A stretch of 7,432 nucleotides of DNA from Candidatus Diapherotrites archaeon CG08_land_8_20_14_0_20_30_16. Its GTDB lineage: Archaea > Iainarchaeota > Iainarchaeia > Iainarchaeales > 0-14-0-20-30-16. Below are positions 1 through 7,341 of this stretch, piece after piece. The notes under the pieces were generated by a model. That model ran no database searches and was not told the DNA's origin. It saw only the letters and a list, made by a program, of their open reading frames with translations. The number at the start of each line of letters is the position of its first letter. Positions within the stretch are counted from its first letter, which is position 1. The translations under genes were made by a program, and so were the position numbers. The stretch is taken from positions 1 through 7,432 of the forward strand of contig PEXK01000042.1 in the NCBI GenBank assembly GCA_002779075.1, in the 5' to 3' direction.

Positions 1-3000
1 GGTGCTTGGATAATAATCAAATAATATATTATCTTTTTTGTCTTCAATTATTGGTGCACTATAATTTAATTGATCCATATAACGATTCCCTACGCCTATT
101 CTATTATTAATAGGTTGTGTTTGATAAAATGGGTTTGTGCCATAAGATGTACCAGTTCCTAAATTGGAAGTTGGGAAAAAGCTACTAGCTAGGTTTGAGC
201 CACCAGTTGTATTCAAAAGATTACTATAAGCATCATAAGTAAATGGGTTTTGCGCATTAAAAGTATTTGTGCCAAACATATTATTGTTAAATCCTAAAGG
301 ATAACCATTTACGCCACTGTTAGCACCTAACATAGGATTGTACATTCCACCTAACATGCTCATTCCCATGTTATATGGTGTTACACCTAAAATTATTGGA
401 TTCATTAATGCTGTAGTTGCATCTAATATCTGACCCTGAGGAGAGATTATTTGCAGGCATTTTTTCAAATCGCTTACTGTTATTACCTGTTCATTGCTTG
501 CGCTAATTTCTTGCAAACCATTATTAGTTGGGAAATAAGCCCTTAGTGTAAAAATTGCTTTTGCCTGCCCAGATATTACTGTTGGGGTTTCAACAAAACT
601 AAGATTTATTGTGTTTTGTTTGGGCTTTACTTCTTTCAAAACCAAAACACCATTTTCATCAATTGTCTGCTTGTTAAAATTGTAAACTCCTAATTTCAAA
701 CCATCCCATTCAACAAAAATACTAGCATTATATAATTGCACCTGCTTTCCTTTGTACATACATGTATTATTTAATTTCAATGACTCCCCTTTAAGAGATA
801 ACTCATTTGAAAATGTTAAAGCCAAACAATTTGGTGCATCCAAAGAATCAAACATTTTTACATAAACTGTCAAGGGTATTTGAACATTCCAGCTTTTATC
901 TATTTCTTCTGCACTAACAACAATATCAATATTTGTTTTGAATGTTTTTGGTTCTAGCAGAGCCAATCCTAAAGGAGTTAATTGACTAAAAATATTCAAA
1001 TCCAAATTTGTATCAAACTCAGTATTAACACTGATATTGGGAAATTTGATATCTACAAAATCCAAAAATGCACCCGAAGAGAACCCTATTTTAGTTACTT
1101 TTAATTTGTAAGGCATGGGTGTCTTTAGCAAAAGACTTTGTGTTGTGTTTTCTTTTTCTGCTTTATCTAATATAATAGATACTTCTGCTTTTTCAGGAAC
1201 TAAAACATTTTCTGTAATTTTCACAGTAGTTGTTACTTCATTATATCCTGAAGCATTAACTTTTATTTTCAAAACATCACCAGAATTTGGCTTTTCTATT
1301 TCTAAGGGTAGTTTTCCTTCGCCATCAGTTTTTCCAGATTTCAATAAAACATCATTCAAATAAACATTTACCAAAGCATCGCTTATAGGTGTTCTATCTT
1401 CTACATCAGTTACAACTACTGCACCTAAATTCAAAACATAAGGTACAATAATTCCCGGCACATATTCTGCAATCAAACTCTTTGGAGCATCAACAGTCAT
1501 TTTAATTTCTTTTGTAAATAATTTCTCCTTACTGTCAGAAATTAAATCAAACACTAATAAAGAGTCGCCTGGCTTTGTTGCACTAAAACCAACTGTTCCT
1601 AAAATTTCTGTTGCTGGTGTAAAATTAGGTATTAATAAAATAAACTTCCCTGACTTTTTTTCAACAATCTGGGGCTTAGCATTTACACTTATTGATGCAT
1701 TGCTCAAATCAATACCATTTTTAGTTGAGATCTCCACAGTAACATTTTTATATATTGTTTTTGTTGCAGAAACTATTTTAAAAGAAAAAATTGTTGGTGC
1801 ATTATAAAGAGGATACATGTCATCAAATACTTGAGTAACATTTCCTAAATTATCTGATGCACTCATATCAATACAGGCAACATTTACGCAAATTAAATTT
1901 CCTGATTTGAAAGATAAATAAGAAGTATCTGCATAGAATCCTAATTTTTCTGAAACATTTTCATTCTGTCCTAATAAATCATCTTGGGGTGCCCTTAAAA
2001 TTGATGTTCCTGATTTCAAACTAGCTCTGTAACCTAATTTGAATAATTTGCTTTTAGGTTCTGATGCAACATTAAATAATACTTTAACTAAAGATGAACC
2101 ACTATTTACTTTTGATATTTGCAATGAAGACCACAAAGCATTATCTGTAGTTTTTGAAAGCATATCATCTGCAAATCCCAAAGGAGCAGTGTAGGTAATG
2201 CCTTTGGTTTCTAAACCATTCAAAACCTCAGCTTTTTTTATTGATATATTATTCTCTTGCACTGTTTTACCATCACCAACAAAGAACACCTGCCCTAAAC
2301 TAAATGGTTTACCTATAGGCACACCTAATAAAAACAAACCATAATATTCGCCATTGGGAACAACATTATATGGCAAAGTATTAATTTCAGAACCATCAGA
2401 ATTGTAAACACCTATGAAATCTACGCTTAAAGTAGAGGGATCATTAACAAAATAAGTTGTTAAAACAGGTGTTTGATTTGAAATTATATTCAAAGCTAAA
2501 GAATATGATGTGCCTTTATCATTTGATGCTTTTGCATAAACTGTTTTATCTGCACTCACACCATAAAAATGTGCAATTCCAGAATCATCAGTCTGGCTTG
2601 GAACACCAATTGATTTTTCAGTAAATGCATTATACAATTCTACATTTATTTCTTTCAGTGCAGATCCTGATTTATCTAAAACAATAACATCTACATTTCC
2701 TTTTCCTACAACCATTTGCACTTCCAATTTATTTTCGTATCTTGGATCTAAAATAATTGGTTTTGATGTTTGAGAATATTCCCCCTTAACTACTTTCGCA
2801 TTATATGATTTTCCAGATTCTAATCTATCAAAAAATGCAATTCCATCGCTTCCTGTTAATTTTTGTGTTAACAAATTGCCTTCTTTAAAAAGTTGGACAG
2901 TTGCTTGTGCAATAGGTTCATTATTTGCTGTAACATATACTTTCAAAATAGGTGCTGATTTTACTGCTTCTAAATGCACTTCTAAAGGGGTTTCTGAAAT

Positions 3001-4227
3001 TCCTACATTTGGATTATCATAAATCATATATTGAAGAGAATCAATTACTACTCTATAGGGCCCAACTTCAGGAACTCCTCTTATGAATATTCCATTTGCA
3101 TCTTCTTTCAATGTCTCGTTGAAATATTGTAAATCACCTTTGTAAACAGAGACTTGTGCTTCTTTTACTGGTTTACCTGCAAAATCCAGAATTAATAAAT
3201 TTATTTTTCCAATATTTGCTTTTTTCAAAGTCAAAATACAATCTGTTGGTGTGTTTTCAGTTAACAATTTGTTACACTCGCTTGTCAAATCATCTTTTGT
3301 TGATAAAAAAGAAAAATCCCCTATTCCAGAATCATATGCAGTAATGTAATAACTCCCAATTGGCAAAGCCAATTCTGCTAATCCAGTATCTGGTGTTATA
3401 CTTGATCCTTGTGAAACATCTTCTTGATCATAAGCGTTTACTGTAATATTAGATAAAAATAATCCTGTTTCATCTTGAACAATAACTCTTAATTTGCCTG
3501 TTTTCTTTGCTTCCGAAACAATTAAATCCAGGCTATCAACACCAACAGAAATTGATTTACTTATTTCAGGATCATATGAAACAATAGATAAATTTCCACA
3601 ATCATTTGGCAGATCAGTTAAATCAACAAACCCGCTTGTAACAGTTACTTTTTTAACATAATTTGTTTTATCACAACTCAAATCTAATTCGATAATATCA
3701 GAAAATAATGCTTTCGAATCTGCATCTGTATATAAGTGCAAAGTTTTTGAGCCTAACAAATTAGTTTTATCTTTCAAATTTACTGTTATTGGATCTTCCG
3801 AAGTTATCACAAAAGAGCTTTGTTCCAAAATATATTTGTCAGAAGAAATAATTAAATTTACTTGTGCATCTTTAGGCAAAGAAACTAATATTTCACCATC
3901 ACTATTTGTTGTTTCTGTTAAGACTTCGTCTGCATAAGATAATGAAACTACTAAATTAGGAACTATTGCGTTATTTGTTACATCCACAAACTTCATATTA
4001 ACACTTAAGTTGGGAGGTACCAAAACACCACAAAAATAAAGAATCAATAAAACAATTACTGCAAGAATAACCAAAAAAATCAAAGCCATTATTGGAAAAG
4101 ATGGGATATTTTTACTTTGCAGCCATTCATCAATTTTATAAAGAAAATGTACTCCTTTTGAATCAAACCAATCTAAACTAGCATAGTATTTTTCTTCTAA
4201 CTTATAATATAAGTCTGATAAACCCAT
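1..4227 (-). CDS. Giant N-terminally membrane-anchored surface (adhesin-like) protein; 5' end complete, 3' end runs off the window (at least 1409 aa)
   Basis: Absent from the supplied ORF track. ATG at 4227-4225, GGTG (4234-4231) 3 nt upstream, in-frame upstream stop TAG at 4240-4238. I read all 1409 plus-strand frame-1 triplets from 1 to 4227 and found no TTA, CTA or TCA, so there is no minus-strand stop. Translation begins MGLSDLYYKLEEKYYASLDWFDSKGVHFLYKIDEWLQSKNIPSFPIMALIFLVILAVIVLLILYFCGVLVPPNLSVNMKFVDV and ends at the edge with ...NRYMDQLNYSAPIIEDKKDNILFDYYPST. Composition is protein-like (D/E/G/V/T/S rich), unlike the K/F/I/N-rich off-frames. It contains one TM helix and repeated beta-sandwich-type modules. 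Confidence 0.9.
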   Translation of the reverse strand, partial: MGLSDLYYKLEEKYYASLDWFDSKGVHFLYKIDEWLQSKNIPSFPIMALIFLVILAVIVLLILYFCGVLVPPNLSVNMKFVDVTNNAIVPNLVVSLSYADEVLTETTNSDGEILVSLPKDAQVNLIISSDKYILEQSSFVITSEDPITVNLKDKTNLLGSKTLHLYTDADSKALFSDIIELDLSCDKTNYVKKVTVTSGFVDLTDLPNDCGNLSIVSYDPEISKSISVGVDSLDLIVSEAKKTGKLRVIVQDETGLFLSNITVNAYDQEDVSQGSSITPDTGLAELALPIGSYYITAYDSGIGDFSFLSTKDDLTSECNKLLTENTPTDCILTLKKANIGKINLLILDFAGKPVKEAQVSVYKGDLQYFNETLKEDANGIFIRGVPEVGPYRVVIDSLQYMIYDNPNVGISETPLEVHLEAVKSAPILKVYVTANNEPIAQATVQLFKEGNLLTQKLTGSDGIAFFDRLESGKSYNAKVVKGEYSQTSKPIILDPRYENKLEVQMVVGKGNVDVIVLDKSGSALKEINVELYNAFTEKSIGVPSQTDDSGIAHFYGVSADKTVYAKASNDKGTSYSLALNIISNQTPVLTTYFVNDPSTLSVDFIGVYNSDGSEINTLPYNVVPNGEYYGLFLLGVPIGKPFSLGQVFFVGDGKTVQENNISIKKAEVLNGLETKGITYTAPLGFADDMLSKTTDNALWSSLQISKVNSGSSLVKVLFNVASEPKSKLFKLGYRASLKSGTSILRAPQDDLLGQNENVSEKLGFYADTSYLSFKSGNLICVNVACIDMSASDNLGNVTQVFDDMYPLYNAPTIFSFKIVSATKTIYKNVTVEISTKNGIDLSNASISVNAKPQIVEKKSGKFILLIPNFTPATEILGTVGFSATKPGDSLLVFDLISDSKEKLFTKEIKMTVDAPKSLIAEYVPGIIVPYVLNLGAVVVTDVEDRTPISDALVNVYLNDVLLKSGKTDGEGKLPLEIEKPNSGDVLKIKVNASGYNEVTTTVKITENVLVPEKAEVSIILDKAEKENTTQSLLLKTPMPYKLKVTKIGFSSGAFLDFVDIKFPNISVNTEFDTNLDLNIFSQLTPLGLALLEPKTFKTNIDIVVSAEEIDKSWNVQIPLTVYVKMFDSLDAPNCLALTFSNELSLKGESLKLNNTCMYKGKQVQLYNASIFVEWDGLKLGVYNFNKQTIDENGVLVLKEVKPKQNTINLSFVETPTVISGQAKAIFTLRAYFPTNNGLQEISASNEQVITVSDLKKCLQIISPQGQILDATTALMNPIILGVTPYNMGMSMLGGMYNPMLGANSGVNGYPLGFNNNMFGTNTFNAQNPFTYDAYSNLLNTTGGSNLASSFFPTSNLGTGTSYGTNPFYQTQPINNRIGVGNRYMDQLNYSAPIIEDKKDNILFDYYPST
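103..420 (-). other. Nearly charge-free N/G/Y/F/M/P/T-rich low-complexity tract of the giant protein (aa 1270-1375)
   Basis: ATTALMNPIILGVTPYNMGMSMLGGMYNPMLGANSGVNGYPLGFNNNMFGTNTFNAQNPFTYDAYSNLLNTTGGSNLASSFFPTSNLGTGTSYGTNPFYQTQPINN. By my count there are 18 Asn and 14 Gly in 106 residues. There is no K, R or E and a single D, while the rest of the protein is K/D/E rich. The tract contains four NP[F/M/I] motifs. Confidence 0.8.
1213..1431 (-). other. Additional isolated carboxypeptidase-regulatory-like module (aa ~933-1005)
   Basis: LGAVVVTDVEDRTPISDALVNVYLNDVLLKSGKTDGEGKLPLEIEKPNSGDVLKIKVNASGYNEVTTTVKI shows the same V-x-D..P-I-x-x-A-x-V, T-D-x-x-G and G-Y pattern as the N-proximal array. 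Confidence 0.5.
2443..4014 (-). other. Array of divergent ~80-100 aa carboxypeptidase-regulatory-like (transthyretin-like beta-sandwich) modules within the giant protein (aa ~72-595)
   Basis: Recurring pattern: h-x-h-x-V-x-D-x-x-G/N-x-P/h-h-x-x-A-x-V-x-h-Y/F, then T-x-x-D/S-G-x-h-x-h, then G-x-Y-x-h-x-h. Examples: KLRVIVQDETGLFLSNITVNAYD..ITPDTGLAELALPIGSYYITAYDSG; KINLLILDFAGKPVKEAQVSVYKG..KEDANGIFIRGVPEVGPYRVVI; ILKVYVTANNEPIAQATVQLFKEG..LTGSDGIAFFDRLESGKSYNAKVV; NVDVIVLDKSGSALKEINVELYN..QTDDSGIAHFYGVSADKTVYAKA. The repeats are visible only at protein level; the DNA copies have diverged. Fold assignment is from motif memory, not a search. Confidence 0.55.
4018..4092 (-). other. Single transmembrane anchor of the giant protein (aa ~46-70)
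   Basis: Uninterrupted hydrophobic run IMALIFLVILAVIVLLILYFCGVLV followed by PP. It lies 45 residues from the N-terminus and has no small-x-small cleavage motif after it. This fits an uncleaved signal-anchor better than a classical signal peptide. Confidence 0.75.
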
Positions 4228-4320
4228 TAGCACCACTATCTATTTATAGATACATAAAGTATATAAATCCTTTTACTCAAAGAATAACAATCTTTTTATA
4301 TATAAAAGGTTTTATAAATA
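4228..4320 (-). promoter_or_regulatory. Putative RBS plus AT-rich promoter region of the giant gene
   Basis: Minus strand reads ...GGATTTATATACTTTATGTATCTATAAATAGATAGTGGTGCTAATG. GGTG (4234-4231) is complementary to the conserved CACC of the 16S 3' tail. Several TATA-like boxes lie 15-90 nt upstream, including the near-palindrome CTTTTTATATATAAAAGG (4292-4309, one mismatch). I cannot choose between bacterial -35/-10 and archaeal BRE/TATA readings in sequence this AT-rich. Confidence 0.3.
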
Positions 4321-4524
4321 AAGTTTATGATATAAGGAGAAGTAGGTTTAAAATACTTTCCATTATGAATTTAGCATGCTTAACATTACCTCTAAAAAAA
4401 AGATAAAAAAATTTGCTTTGAAAATAAAATATGCTAAAACAGTTTTGCAGCAGACAAAAGGATTAATGTTTTTGTTTAAGGGGGAGTTTGATTTTGGTTT
4501 GATATTTCCTTTCAAACAAAAAAA

Positions 4525-4593
4525 CAGATTTTTGAATTCAATACACATGTTCTTTGTTTTCTTTCCAATCTGCGCAGTTTTTTTGAATTCCAA
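4525..4593. repeat. Two copies of an imperfect ~17-nt repeat with a palindromic GAATTC core, 51 bp apart
   Basis: CAGATTTTTGAATTCAA at 4525-4541 contains the perfect 10-bp palindrome TTGAATTCAA (4532-4541). CAGTTTTTTTGAATTCCAA is at 4575-4593. The shared core TTTTTGAATTC sits at 4529-4539 and 4580-4590. The sequence facts are direct; function is unknown. Confidence 0.5.
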
Positions 4594-4756
4594 AAAAAGA
4601 GTTGTTGATAAAAAAATATTGAAACCATTCACACCAATTTATATACCAAAAAAAGACTGTTCTTTTTTAATAGAGCTTCCAATAAAATATTCTAAAAAAA
4701 TAAAAACAGGAGATAAAATATATTGGCAGGAAAAATAAACAAAAGAAAAATAAATA

Positions 4757-6316
4757 TTATTTTCCTACTAATTTAATTCCCAATTCTACCAGTTTTTCAT
4801 CCTCAACAGGCGATGGTGAGTTTTCCATTAGACCTTCTGCTGCTTTGTTTTTTGGAAAAGCAATAACCTCTCTAATAGCTTCTGCACCTATCAAAAGCAT
4901 TATCAATCTGTCTAAACCTATTGCTAATCCACCGTGAGGTGGAATTCCAGAATTAAATGCGTCCAAGAAAAAACCAAAATTATTTTTTACTTCTTTATCC
5001 TTTAACCCTAAAAGACCAAAAATTTTCTTTTGCATTTCATAATCATGGATTCTAATGCTTCCACCACCTAATTCCACACCATTTAAAACAACATCATATG
5101 CTCTACTTTTCATTTGGTCTAGTGGCAGATTAATATCATTTGGTTGTGTAAATGGGTGATGTGTTGGCATATATCTTCTCTCTGTTTCGCTATATTCAAA
5201 CATAGGAAAATCATAAACCCACAAAAATTTATCCTCGCCTTTATTTAAATCCAACAATTTAGCAATTTCAGTTCTAGCATTACCTAATTTTAAATAAGGC
5301 CCATAAACAAATTCTGATTTCGGTTTGTCTATAAAAACCAAAACCTCACTGCCTTTTGATTCATATAAAACATCTTTCTGAGATTTCAAATAATCTATTA
5401 CTAAATTATTTGTCTTTATTAAAAAATATACTTTATTTTTGTCTGTTTTAAATTCTAAATCAAATCTCAAATCTGGTTTATCAGAACCATATTTTTTTAA
5501 TGCCACATCGTATGTTAATTTGACAAATGGAGTTTTTATTTTTACCCCTTTAAATTTTTCCCAAATTTCTTTTAATAATCCTTCAATAACTTGCATTATA
5601 TCTTCTTCATTAATAAAAGACATCTCTAAATCTATTTGTGTAAATTCTGGTTGTCTATCTGCTCTCAAATCCTCATCTCTAAAACATTTTGCAATTTGAA
5701 AATATCTATTGAAACCAGATATCATCAAAATCTGTTTGTATAATTGTGGGCTTTGTGGTAATGCGTAAAACAACCCCTTGTTAATCCTAGAAGGCACCAA
5801 ATAATCCCTTGCGCCTTCAGGAGTACTCTTTCCCAAAATAGGGGTTTCAATTTCATTAAATCCCAACTCATAAAGATAATCTCTAATAGTCTTTGTGATT
5901 TGGGATCTTAGAATAATATTCTGTTGTGGTTTTTCGGTTCTCAAATATAAATATCTATATTTTTGTGTTGTTTCTTCAGTTGGTTTTAGTTCATTAATAT
6001 TAGAATTTGTAAAAGGCAAATTAGTTGCAATAGAATTTATAATTAATTCTTTTGCCTGCAATTCATATTTTGTATTGTCATCTTTTTTGTGTTTCAATAT
6101 GCCTTTACATGTGATACAAGATTCTATTGTCAATTTTTTAGCCTGTTCATTTAATTCAGGAGTTGTTAATACTACTTGTATTTTTCCAGACAAATCTCTT
6201 ATTTCTATAAACCCTATTTTTCCCATCAATCTCAAAGTATTTACCCAACCATTAATTGTAACTTCTTTTTCTAAATTTTCTTTTTTATTTGTTATATCTT
6301 TAATAGTATAATTCAT
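4757..6316 (-). CDS. aspS: Aspartyl-tRNA synthetase, bacterial type, with shortened insertion (GAD-like) domain
   Basis: N-terminal OB-fold anticodon-binding pattern (VTINGWVNTLRLMGKIGFIEIRDLSGKIQVV). Class II signatures are near-identical to bacterial AspRS as I remember it for E. coli: STPEGARDYLVPSR, FYALPQSPQLYKQ, FRDEDLRADRQPEFTQIDLEMSF, YGSDKPDLR, HHPFTQP, GGGSIRIH, PPHGGLAIGLDRL, AFPK. Stop TAA at 4759-4757. I prefer the ATG at 6316 over the track's GTG at 6325, because GGAAGTGA (6329-6322) lies 5 nt upstream of it as an RBS. Using the GTG adds only 3 residues. Confidence 0.93.
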   Translation of the reverse strand: MNYTIKDITNKKENLEKEVTINGWVNTLRLMGKIGFIEIRDLSGKIQVVLTTPELNEQAKKLTIESCITCKGILKHKKDDNTKYELQAKELIINSIATNLPFTNSNINELKPTEETTQKYRYLYLRTEKPQQNIILRSQITKTIRDYLYELGFNEIETPILGKSTPEGARDYLVPSRINKGLFYALPQSPQLYKQILMISGFNRYFQIAKCFRDEDLRADRQPEFTQIDLEMSFINEEDIMQVIEGLLKEIWEKFKGVKIKTPFVKLTYDVALKKYGSDKPDLRFDLEFKTDKNKVYFLIKTNNLVIDYLKSQKDVLYESKGSEVLVFIDKPKSEFVYGPYLKLGNARTEIAKLLDLNKGEDKFLWVYDFPMFEYSETERRYMPTHHPFTQPNDINLPLDQMKSRAYDVVLNGVELGGGSIRIHDYEMQKKIFGLLGLKDKEVKNNFGFFLDAFNSGIPPHGGLAIGLDRLIMLLIGAEAIREVIAFPKNKAAEGLMENSPSPVEDEKLVELGIKLVGK

Positions 6317-6382: not shown

Positions 6383-6655
6383 TTATATCCTTGTTTTTTT
6401 TTTCTTAGGTACATTTCGGATCAGTATCCTAGATAACTGTTCTTTAAGTCTCCCTCTTTCTTTTAATAACTTATTTCTACGTTTTTGAACATCAAGCAAC
6501 CTATCATTTAATTCTTTCTTTACTTTTTTTGTTTCTGCTTTTTCAATTGCAGCAAATAAAGATAATAATTCTTTTTCTAAAGCTTCTAAAGAACTATTCA
6601 CTGTCAATAATTTTGTAGTCACAGTTCTTGCTTCAGGAAGCTCATTTTCCAACAT
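6383..6655 (-). CDS. Hypothetical 90-aa coiled-coil protein with basic C-terminal tail
   Basis: ATG at 6655, TAA at 6385-6383. Same strand as its neighbours, with short gaps (35 nt to the upstream gene, 57-66 nt to aspS). Heptad-like charged and leucine pattern (LEALEKELLSLFAAIEKAETKKVKKELNDRLLDVQKRRNKLLKERGRLKEQLSRIL), ending in RNVPKKKKTRI. I do not recognise a family. Confidence 0.6.
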   Translation of the reverse strand: MLENELPEARTVTTKLLTVNSSLEALEKELLSLFAAIEKAETKKVKKELNDRLLDVQKRRNKLLKERGRLKEQLSRILIRNVPKKKKTRI

Positions 6656-7319: not shown

Positions 7320-7341
7320 AAATTCTAATAAAATTCTAATA
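7320..7341. repeat. Perfect 11-bp tandem duplication AAATTCTAATA x2 upstream of the cysteine-cluster gene
   Basis: 7320-7330 and 7331-7341 are identical. The pair is flanked by direct TTTTGAT copies at 7311-7317 and 7343-7349, giving an A-B-B-A layout. It lies 48-69 nt upstream of the ATG at 7272. Confidence 0.6.

Follow-up and report, generated by a model that had tools for sequence, protein, structure and literature searches.

The window analyzed here, a stretch of 7432 nucleotides (nt) from Candidatus Diapherotrites archaeon CG08_land_8_20_14_0_20_30_16 (assembly GCA_002779075.1) that makes up the whole of contig PEXK01000042.1, encodes the N-terminal ~60% of a giant protein. This protein is an A-type member of a superfamily of giant, single-pass, N-terminally anchored cell-surface proteins that is specific to DPANN archaea (Diapherotrites and Micrarchaeota). 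What is new is the superfamily, which is large and unnamed and combines a near-invariant N-terminal module of 45 residues (the N-module), a common stalk of 1200 amino acids (aa), exchangeable heads, and conserved loci that hold several giant genes. The open reading frame (ORF) was already in GenBank as a hypothetical protein, giant surface proteins of ultra-small, symbiont-like prokaryotes are known, and the system is not categorically new. From this architecture we infer, with a probability of roughly 55%, that the protein is an N-anchored stalk and head for contact with other cells or with surfaces.

The frame is a real, constrained coding gene. Its 1409 codons, read on the minus strand from 4227 to 1, contain no stop (the translation begins MGLSDLYYKLEEKYY), and the other five frames carry between 49 and 158 stops each across the same 4227 nt. 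Given the base composition of the strand, which sets the probability of a stop at 0.089 per codon (about 1 per 11 codons), an open run of this length is expected by chance with a probability of ~1e-57. An earlier note on this DNA had argued that the frame could not be accidental, and the calculation (log10 P = -57) agrees. The same note remarked that the gene was missing from its ORF list; this is true and is an artifact of the tool, as the lister leaves out ORFs that are still open where a sequence stops, and the same 1409 aa are deposited in GenBank as “hypothetical protein COT14_02630, partial.” The longest off-frame ORF in the list was correctly given as 138 aa and lies antisense to the aspartyl-tRNA synthetase (AspRS) gene.

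The start site is likewise well defined. Two in-frame GTG codons lie between the upstream in-frame TAG and the ATG of the giant gene. Since the giants of orthologous loci likewise begin with M-G-L-S-D, each with its own GGTG 7 to 8 nt 5' of the ATG, we take the ATG at 4227 to be the true start, as had been proposed from its placement behind a GGTG ribosome-binding site. Assembled independently, at least eight samples or runs yield identical or near-identical sequence. Two longer assemblies of this population were retrieved through an exact match to the neighboring CxxCxxCC protein. Of these, contig L007, 99.99% identical to the window across 7432 nt, extends the frame to at least 2089 codons, and contig L008, 100% identical across 7403 nt, extends it to at least 2065 codons, with the frame still open in both. 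The expectation that the true protein is larger than the window shows was thus correct: it has at least 2089 aa here and 2187 to 2554 aa in homologs. Searches of the metagenome collection for sequence beyond the end of L007 (with an exact 38-mer and with a degenerate KTFCDAEQLK pattern) gave no match; statements about the C terminus rest on orthologs, as the organism's own sequence ends at codon 2089 (L007). The closest orthologs are 2307 to 2428 aa long, which suggests about 2300 to 2430 residues for the complete protein.

Twelve homologs, 11 of them full length (2187 to 2554 aa) and one partial (1712 aa), align along the whole length of the extended 2089-aa protein with 24 to 53% identity; counted over aligned stretches, identities of homologs range from 24 to 57%. 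Codon alignments with four orthologs gave ratios of nonsynonymous to synonymous substitution rates (dN/dS) of 0.38 to 0.48, and the true values are probably lower because dS is close to saturation. In terms of the proportions of nonsynonymous and synonymous differences (pN/pS), constraint is strongest on the N-module and the transmembrane segment (0.19 to 0.45) and weakest on the linker described below (0.64 to 0.85). The near-identical contigs differ by a single D>E change, and single-nucleotide differences among them are too few to inform on selection. Neither of the two signs against a gene that the earlier note had named, an in-frame stop and an absence of purifying selection, was found. 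The note had also guessed at an AT-rich streamlined genome from the letters alone, and the host is indeed an AT-rich, small-genome DPANN archaeon (Candidatus Diapherotrites). A locus search with seven closer sequences matched two genomes.

The N-module defines the superfamily. Ten of its positions (Y9, E13, Y17, D21, P28, Y30, D34, and P41-S42-F43) are 89 to 100% conserved across 155 proteins, the ectodomains of which drop to ~25% identity, with 93 to 100% for the Y, E, Y, D, P, Y, and PSF positions, and residues 1 to 45 of the window protein carry the full motif. The module matched nothing in Pfam, NCBIfam, or PDB sequences, and its matches to the Loki-CTERM and Heimdall-CTERM models of NCBIfam are at noise level (E 1.6 to 3.9). 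An exhaustive search of 1.84 billion cluster representatives with an N-module profile returned 1128 proteins at E<=1e-3, of which 892 reached E<=1e-10; the family thus numbers 1128 or more clusters at 50% identity. In nearly all matches, the module sits at the extreme N terminus, in proteins of up to 3251 aa. A word-indexed search with the same profile found only 18 short fragments at contig edges, and a search with a profile of the C-terminal head added just two proteins. All named carriers are Candidatus Diapherotrites, Micrarchaeota, or unclassified archaea; they are annotated as “hypothetical” or “carboxypeptidase regulatory-like domain-containing,” and a literature search found no description of this family of giants.

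Directly after the N-module lies the sole strongly hydrophobic segment in 2089 aa (residues 46 to 69; mean Kyte-Doolittle score over 19 residues of up to 3.4). A single transmembrane segment occupies the same place in 65 of 71 long superfamily members, and no C-terminal anchor or transmembrane segment was detected in the full-length homologs or in the 71 long representatives. The protein is thus N-terminally anchored, as had been supposed, with one transmembrane segment and no other anchor.

Beyond the membrane segment, the protein consists of three parts: a chassis of tandem beta-sandwich domains, a linker, and a head. In the chassis (residues 70 to 1290), Pfam family CarboxypepD_reg (PF13620) matches in four stretches (E 2.7e-24; 85.7 bits against a cutoff of 32.3) and bMG3 matches as well (E 7e-12; 45.6 bits against a cutoff of 34.9), alongside Big_1-like matches and weak cross-matches to the NOMO1-like, FAM171, and EMC7 beta-sandwich families. 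Residues 75 to 1274 were modeled with AlphaFold2 from the family alignment; the model is all-beta, with only three short helices, and has a mean predicted local distance difference test score (pLDDT) of 81; its predicted template modeling score (pTM) is 0.44, and the model does not fix the geometry from one domain to the next. The top Foldseek matches of the chassis in the PDB are ECAM (E 2.5e-20), A2ML1, C3/C5, TEP1, and CD109, along with hydin-like ciliary proteins, PrgB, and GhpA, with TM-scores of 0.07 to 0.15 that place the likeness at the level of single domains only. Cysteines 185/210, 780/785, 1134/1156, and 1257 are invariant in the family, and the chassis cysteines are kept in 32 to 47 of 48 paralog representatives that are not of the A type; the conserved pairs fit extracellular disulfides. 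The earlier description of a repeat-rich ectoprotein therefore holds for the location, as beta-sandwich domains with invariant cysteine pairs look extracellular, and for the fold, with ~13 to 14 divergent beta-sandwich domains; it fails for the sequence, as no repeats were detected at the DNA or protein level in positions 1 to 4227.

The linker that follows is specific to A-type proteins, poorly conserved and gappy in the family alignment, and predicted to be disordered (pLDDT ~25 in the model of an ortholog). It is flanked by the invariant Cys1257 (window positions 457 to 459) and by Cys1463, the latter seen in L007; this arrangement suggests that the two cysteines may close a disulfide loop of ~200 residues around the linker. 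Cys1257 is also kept in paralogs that lack the linker. The head, which lies beyond the window and which we describe from orthologs, comprises ~900 aa with further conserved cysteines and gave no match in Pfam, NCBIfam, or PDB sequences.

Comparisons among paralogs separate the conserved part from the variable one. Adjacent paralogs align by BLASTP over residues 1 to ~1280 only; a hidden Markov model of the chassis matches 52 of 71 representatives longer than 1500 aa collinearly (residues ~75 to 1300), and an A-type head match of any kind occurs in only 19 of 143 representatives. On these grounds, we read the protein as a common stalk with a variable head.

The giants also occur together. Co-oriented clusters of 2 to 5 N-module giants are found in loci L010 to L015, L018, and L019, and the neighboring giants in orthologous loci begin with the same N-module. 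Within the clade of the window (L010, L011, L013, and L019), the order is AspRS, a divergent DUF192 gene, the A-type giant, a B-type giant immediately downstream of it, a ~840-aa protein with a Sec signal, and two ~90-aa genes. In a more distant clade (L012, L014, L015, and L018), a D-type giant, a protein of 355 to 605 aa, and the A-, B-, and C-type giants follow one another on one strand, and in L014 and L015 a small protein with several transmembrane segments comes next after the A-type giant.

How such a protein might work can be laid out in steps. Its route into the membrane would be the Sec pathway, and it would adopt the type II (signal-anchor) orientation, with the N-module in the cytoplasm and all the rest outside. 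The chassis would form a stalk of conserved length, ~45 to 55 nm if fully extended, as 13 to 14 domains would contribute ~3.5 to 4 nm each, the usual length of an Ig-like domain. A flexible tether would connect the stalk to a type-specific head held out past the cell envelope, a role that the low-complexity, unconserved, and predicted disordered linker would suit. The head would bind an external target, which could be a surface, a polymer, or another cell's envelope (that of a host or a partner). The paralogous giants of one locus would act jointly as a contact apparatus, a reading prompted by the co-oriented clusters and by the pilin-like gene found in four loci. The extreme conservation of the N-module implies docking to a conserved cytoplasmic or membrane partner, which would serve targeting, insertion, or anchoring. 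There is a precedent in giant surface proteins of other DPANN archaea, namely the SPEARE proteins and the surface proteins of Mia14, which have been implicated in host contact.

Taken further, these observations allow a bolder proposal, which we put forward only tentatively and consider clearly short of even odds: that the N-module is a previously unrecognized archaeal sorting or anchoring signal for giants, read by a conserved cytoplasmic or membrane partner, and that the 2 to 5 giants of a locus, alike in chassis and distinct in head type, form one hetero-oligomeric contact organelle by which Diapherotrites and Micrarchaeota engage partner cells. The partner could possibly be a dedicated insertion or processing machinery and perhaps be related to exosortase-like or pilin-like neighbor genes. 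One such gene, of the exosortase/archaeosortase family (TIGR04178, E 8e-9, with weaker likeness to pacearchaeosortase), lies at positions 2 to 247 (+) of L014, co-oriented with an N-module giant and 88 nt upstream of it; no gene of this family was found in the other fetched loci. The invariant P-S-F followed by a transmembrane segment superficially resembles PGF/PEF-CTERM signals. We nevertheless consider a link to archaeosortase sorting unsupported: the tripartite signal of that system (motif, transmembrane segment, and basic tail) is C-terminal, and the giants have no C-terminal transmembrane segment and carry PSF and the membrane segment at the N terminus; the predicted topology would leave PSF on the wrong membrane face; the exosortase gene was found at just one of the fetched loci; and the CTERM similarity is noise.

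The pilin-like genes are of a different kind. Mutually homologous proteins of 355 to 605 aa stand directly 5' of the A-type giant in four loci (L012, 6975 to 8792; L014, 8833 to 9900; L015, 4066 to 5571; L018, 8779 to 9873). They carry a class III (type IV prepilin-like) signal, K/R-G-F-T/H-L-F-T/S-A-L, and belong to no Pfam family, with just a noise-level match to ComGF. The giant itself is not a type IV pilin-like protein, as it begins with a 45-aa acidic leader ending in PSF in place of the short basic leader and K/R-G/A cleavage site that precede the hydrophobic helix in such proteins.

An attachment role remains plausible for a protein whose head has no assigned binding domain or fold, and several findings weigh against it or fail to help it. 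Searches of every part of the protein turned up no binding domain of the lectin, cadherin, laminin-G, or a similar kind. For the head, the model is of low quality (pLDDT 55), and Foldseek searches with it against PDB and viral models return only PapD/MSP/Ig-like sandwiches at TM-scores below 0.1. N-glycosylation sequons are not enriched (23 found and 22 expected). The N-terminal tail is net negative (5 K/R and 7 D/E), which makes the predicted topology with the N terminus inside less certain, and the small residues after the membrane segment could be a signal peptidase site. Heads are conserved between species (20 to 50% identity) rather than hypervariable, unlike what an arms race with a host would lead one to expect.

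The alternative that fares best, although we consider it unlikely, is that the giants are structural components of the envelope, membrane-anchored struts of fixed length that hold up an outer layer of heads and set the width of a pseudo-periplasm. In this view the giants would be the cell's own wall or canopy and no adhesins, comparable to the S-layer stalks tetrabrachion and SlaB or to NOMO, a spacer in the ER. A ruler or spacer would be expected to look like the chassis, the length and domain order of which are strictly conserved across paralogs and phyla, and the weak Pfam cross-matches to the NOMO1-like, FAM171, and EMC7 families count in the same direction; the conservation of heads within each type, with several types kept side by side, also fits a hetero-oligomeric structure. 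Several giants of ~250 kDa would, however, be a costly wall for a genome of ~1 Mb, and the experimentally identified S-layer protein of Micrarchaeota is a different protein, of 101 kDa and the most abundant in the cell. The unenriched sequons also contrast with archaeal S-layer proteins, which are usually heavily glycosylated. The giant matches no S-layer model, and we rejected S-layer membership, as neither the full-length ortholog P0002 nor its paralogs match the NCBIfam models TIGR01564 and TIGR01567.

Less probable again is that the giants are secreted, with the N-module and hydrophobic segment forming an unusually long cleavable signal peptide (~70 aa) reserved for giant cargo and the mature protein released or held at the cell through other subunits, such as pilin-like ones. 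The length of the hydrophobic segment argues against cleavage, since its 23 to 24 residues are typical of a transmembrane helix and the H-region of a signal peptide has 7 to 15, and so does the near-invariance of Y, E, D, and P over 45 positions, for which a leader that is removed would have no obvious need; no alternative anchor was detected either. In favor of this reading are the small residues (G/A/S) behind the segment, the N-module itself, which has exactly the position of bacterial extended signal peptides and is almost confined to very large proteins, and the existence of one head domain as a separate protein with a Sec signal, which indicates that free heads are tolerated.

This last protein touches on the head in its own right. 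In L010 (12802 to 15315) and L019 (18369 to 20900), proteins of 837 and 843 aa carry an ordinary Sec signal and a Gly-rich N-terminal region and share homology with the final ~400 aa of B-type giants from other species. They reflect gene fission or fusion of a head domain; a head can accordingly exist as a separate secreted protein.

Polymorphic toxins offer a formally similar layout, a conserved N-terminal part (~1280 aa) with divergent C termini in adjacent paralogs, and the giants might by analogy be contact-dependent effectors, in which an N-terminal scaffold delivers exchangeable C-terminal effectors that damage or open a partner cell. Long beta-hairpins and helices in the head model, and the toxin-like domain carried by SPEARE proteins of another DPANN lineage, could be cited for this reading. 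We hold it to be very improbable: the heads, at ~900 aa, form conserved orthologous types across species in place of shuffled cassettes; searches revealed no toxin, nuclease, protease, or immunity family; and no pore-former or toxin fold was matched. Membership in the polymorphic toxin or contact-dependent inhibition systems was rejected on the same grounds.

The Foldseek matches led by ECAM, A2ML1, C3/C5, TEP1, and CD109, together with the bMG3 match, raise the question of a membrane-bound protease trap like alpha-2-macroglobulin (A2M) or other thioester proteins, as in bacterial ECAM/YfhM, an identity we regard as scarcely credible. With TM-scores of 0.07 to 0.15, the repeated MG/Ig-like domains alone account for these matches; neither the 2089-aa sequence nor any of the 12 homologs contains the CxEQ thioester motif; and the alpha-helical TED domain is missing, with no match to the A2M, TED, or A2M_recep families of Pfam in the window protein or the full-length homologs. 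A2M membership was rejected for want of a thioester and a TED and for an all-beta chassis. Finally, a chance open frame, a pseudogene, or an assembly artifact can be dismissed: the frame is cut by the contig end and a related low-coverage contig (L020) holds a fragmented giant, but P ~1e-57, the independent near-identical assemblies, the full-length homologs, purifying selection, and the confident AlphaFold2 model all speak against it. In that contig (L020, 5189 to 14339, at 1.5× coverage), an N-module giant is split into at least eight consecutive ORFs (109, 621, 73, 75, 513... aa), probably by sequencing frameshifts and less likely as a pseudogene.

Table 1. Coordinates of the giant gene, its parts, and adjoining features in the window.
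Feature	Position	Strand	Remark
5' part (codons 1-1409) of the A-type giant surface-protein gene	1..4227	-	Frame open at position 1
Start ATG	4227-4225	-	Bounded by upstream in-frame TAG
In-frame TAG, four codons 5' of the ATG, limiting the N terminus	4240..4242	-	
GGTG Shine-Dalgarno-like motif, 3 nt 5' of the ATG	4231..4234	-	
TTTATATA, possible archaeal TATA box, 33-40 nt 5' of the ATG	4260..4267	-	Read from sequence alone
N-module, residues 1-45, probably a cytoplasmic tail (Y..E...Y...D......P.Y...D......PSF)	4093..4227	-	
Single transmembrane helix/signal-anchor, residues 46-69 (IMALIFLVILAVIVLLILYFCGVL)	4021..4092	-	
Chassis, residues 70-1290, ~13-14 tandem divergent beta-sandwich domains (CarboxypepD_reg/MG/Ig-like)	358..4020	-	
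N/G/M/P/S/Y-rich low-complexity linker, first 119 residues (1291-1409)	1..357	-	Runs on to ~residue 1460
DUF192 gene, divergently transcribed	4376..4738	+	PF02643, E 3e-10; same arrangement in L019

The surroundings of the giant genes hold several further features. Other giants, of 1702 to 2175 aa, occur in L013 (1 to 9528) and L019 (967 to 6075); they have CARDB domains and ordinary Sec signals and lack the N-module, and their position upstream of the A-type gene in these two relatives points to a second, unrelated class of giant surface proteins in the neighborhood. After the giant cluster in L010 (15457 to 16006) and L019 (21041 to 21580), two adjacent or overlapping genes of ~90 aa each are laid out like a toxin-antitoxin pair, and neither has a Pfam match.

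In the window, the AspRS gene (4757 to 6316, -) is of the bacterial type (TIGR00459 aspS_bact, E 1e-174, versus 9e-63 for the archaeal-type model). Its product has 519 aa, compared with ~590 for the bacterial-type model, and the insertion domain appears shortened; the GTG start given in the ORF list (522 aa) is probably wrong, as gene callers take an ATG three codons in. A lysine-rich, probably coiled ORF of 90 aa without a family match lies at 6383 to 6655 (-). A one-nucleotide homopolymer indel at ~6394 to 6403 separates this 90-aa ORF, shared by the window and L008, from a 110-aa ORF in L002 and L007, and may reflect a true polymorphism or a mistake in assembly. The listed ORFs at 4363 to 4632 (-; 89 aa) and 5895 to 6311 (+; 138 aa) are shadow ORFs on the strand opposite DUF192 and AspRS, respectively, and match no family. 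Contig L001 (SRR6261447) lacks 11 nt at window positions 7320 to 7330, in the intergenic region upstream of a CxxCxxCC gene, and contig L003 (JGI sample 3300004238) has eight substitutions clustered at 4755 to 4879, at the 3' end of the AspRS gene; these differences indicate micro-diversity within the population. Rfam and tRNA scans of the window gave no matches.

DPANN archaea are abundant, mostly uncultured, and thought to be attached to other cells, and the molecules that make contact are known for few lineages. With no fewer than 1128 clusters at 50% identity, the family described here is large; it is also costly, taking up at least 10,000 codons in one conserved cluster of small genomes, and it has carried no annotation beyond “carboxypeptidase regulatory-like domain.” Its short, near-invariant N-terminal signature can be used to find these proteins in any metagenome, and the conserved stalk with a confident model and the defined head types A to D, which can be expressed for binding tests, provide further handles. 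Should the N-module turn out to be a signal dedicated to targeting or anchoring, giant archaeal surface proteins would gain the first N-terminal signal of this kind to be described.

Among known systems, stalked S-layer proteins such as tetrabrachion and SlaB are anchored at the C terminus and have coiled-coil stalks. The S-layer protein of Micrarchaeota, SLP_Mh, is a 101-kDa protein with TIGR01564/01567 domains and the most abundant protein of its organism (10.1101/2021.04.28.441871). The window giant resembles all three as a membrane-anchored, elongated, beta-rich protein of the archaeal envelope; it matches no S-layer model, and its N-terminal anchor sets it apart from tetrabrachion and SlaB. 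With the A2M/complement/TEP family (ECAM 5a42, A2ML1, and C5), it has in common a chain of MG-type beta-sandwiches, and ECAM is also membrane-anchored at its N terminus; the giant differs in the absence of the thioester motif and of the TED, CUB, and receptor-binding domains and in a global TM-score of at most 0.15.

Bacteria provide the closest parallels to the N-module in terms of position. The ESPR of type V secreted proteins and the YSIRK-G/S and KxYKxGKxW motifs are conserved blocks that lie N-terminal to the hydrophobic core of an export signal and are found preferentially in surface proteins of very large size. The N-module is analogous to them in placement and has no sequence similarity to them; it is longer (~45 aa), acidic and aromatic rather than basic, and followed by a segment of transmembrane length. 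Giant adhesins of bacteria, for their part, are long rods of tandem beta-sandwiches that project a distal region, are often encoded by several consecutive giant genes, are retained by Sec/LPXTG, type 1 secretion, or similar anchors, and usually have near-identical sequence repeats. Giant adhesins with Ig-like repeats include SiiE, Embp, a 7651-aa adhesin of Mobiluncus, and Giant1-5 of Apilactobacillus (PMC9302970, PMC10619420, and PMC12863079). The window giant is likewise a long chain of tandem beta-sandwiches, and its orthologs come from loci with consecutive giant genes; in contrast, it has an N-terminal transmembrane segment after a unique module, divergent domains, and an archaeal host.

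Within the DPANN, the SPEARE proteins of Nanohaloarchaeota are giant (3,300 to 8,500 aa), single-pass, and mostly extracytoplasmic; their paralogs occupy a few percent of a tiny genome, their intracellular portion is the most conserved, and a role in host contact has been proposed for them (Hamm et al. 2019, PMC6642349). Their anchor mostly lies close to the C terminus, and they have laminin-G, serine-protease, toxin-like, and restriction-endonuclease domains, none of which is present in the window giant, the conserved cytoplasmic part of which is a 45-aa module and no enzyme; no sequence similarity between the two was found. They are nonetheless its closest biological analog, as both are giant, single-pass, multicopy proteins of DPANN archaea whose intracellular part is the most conserved.

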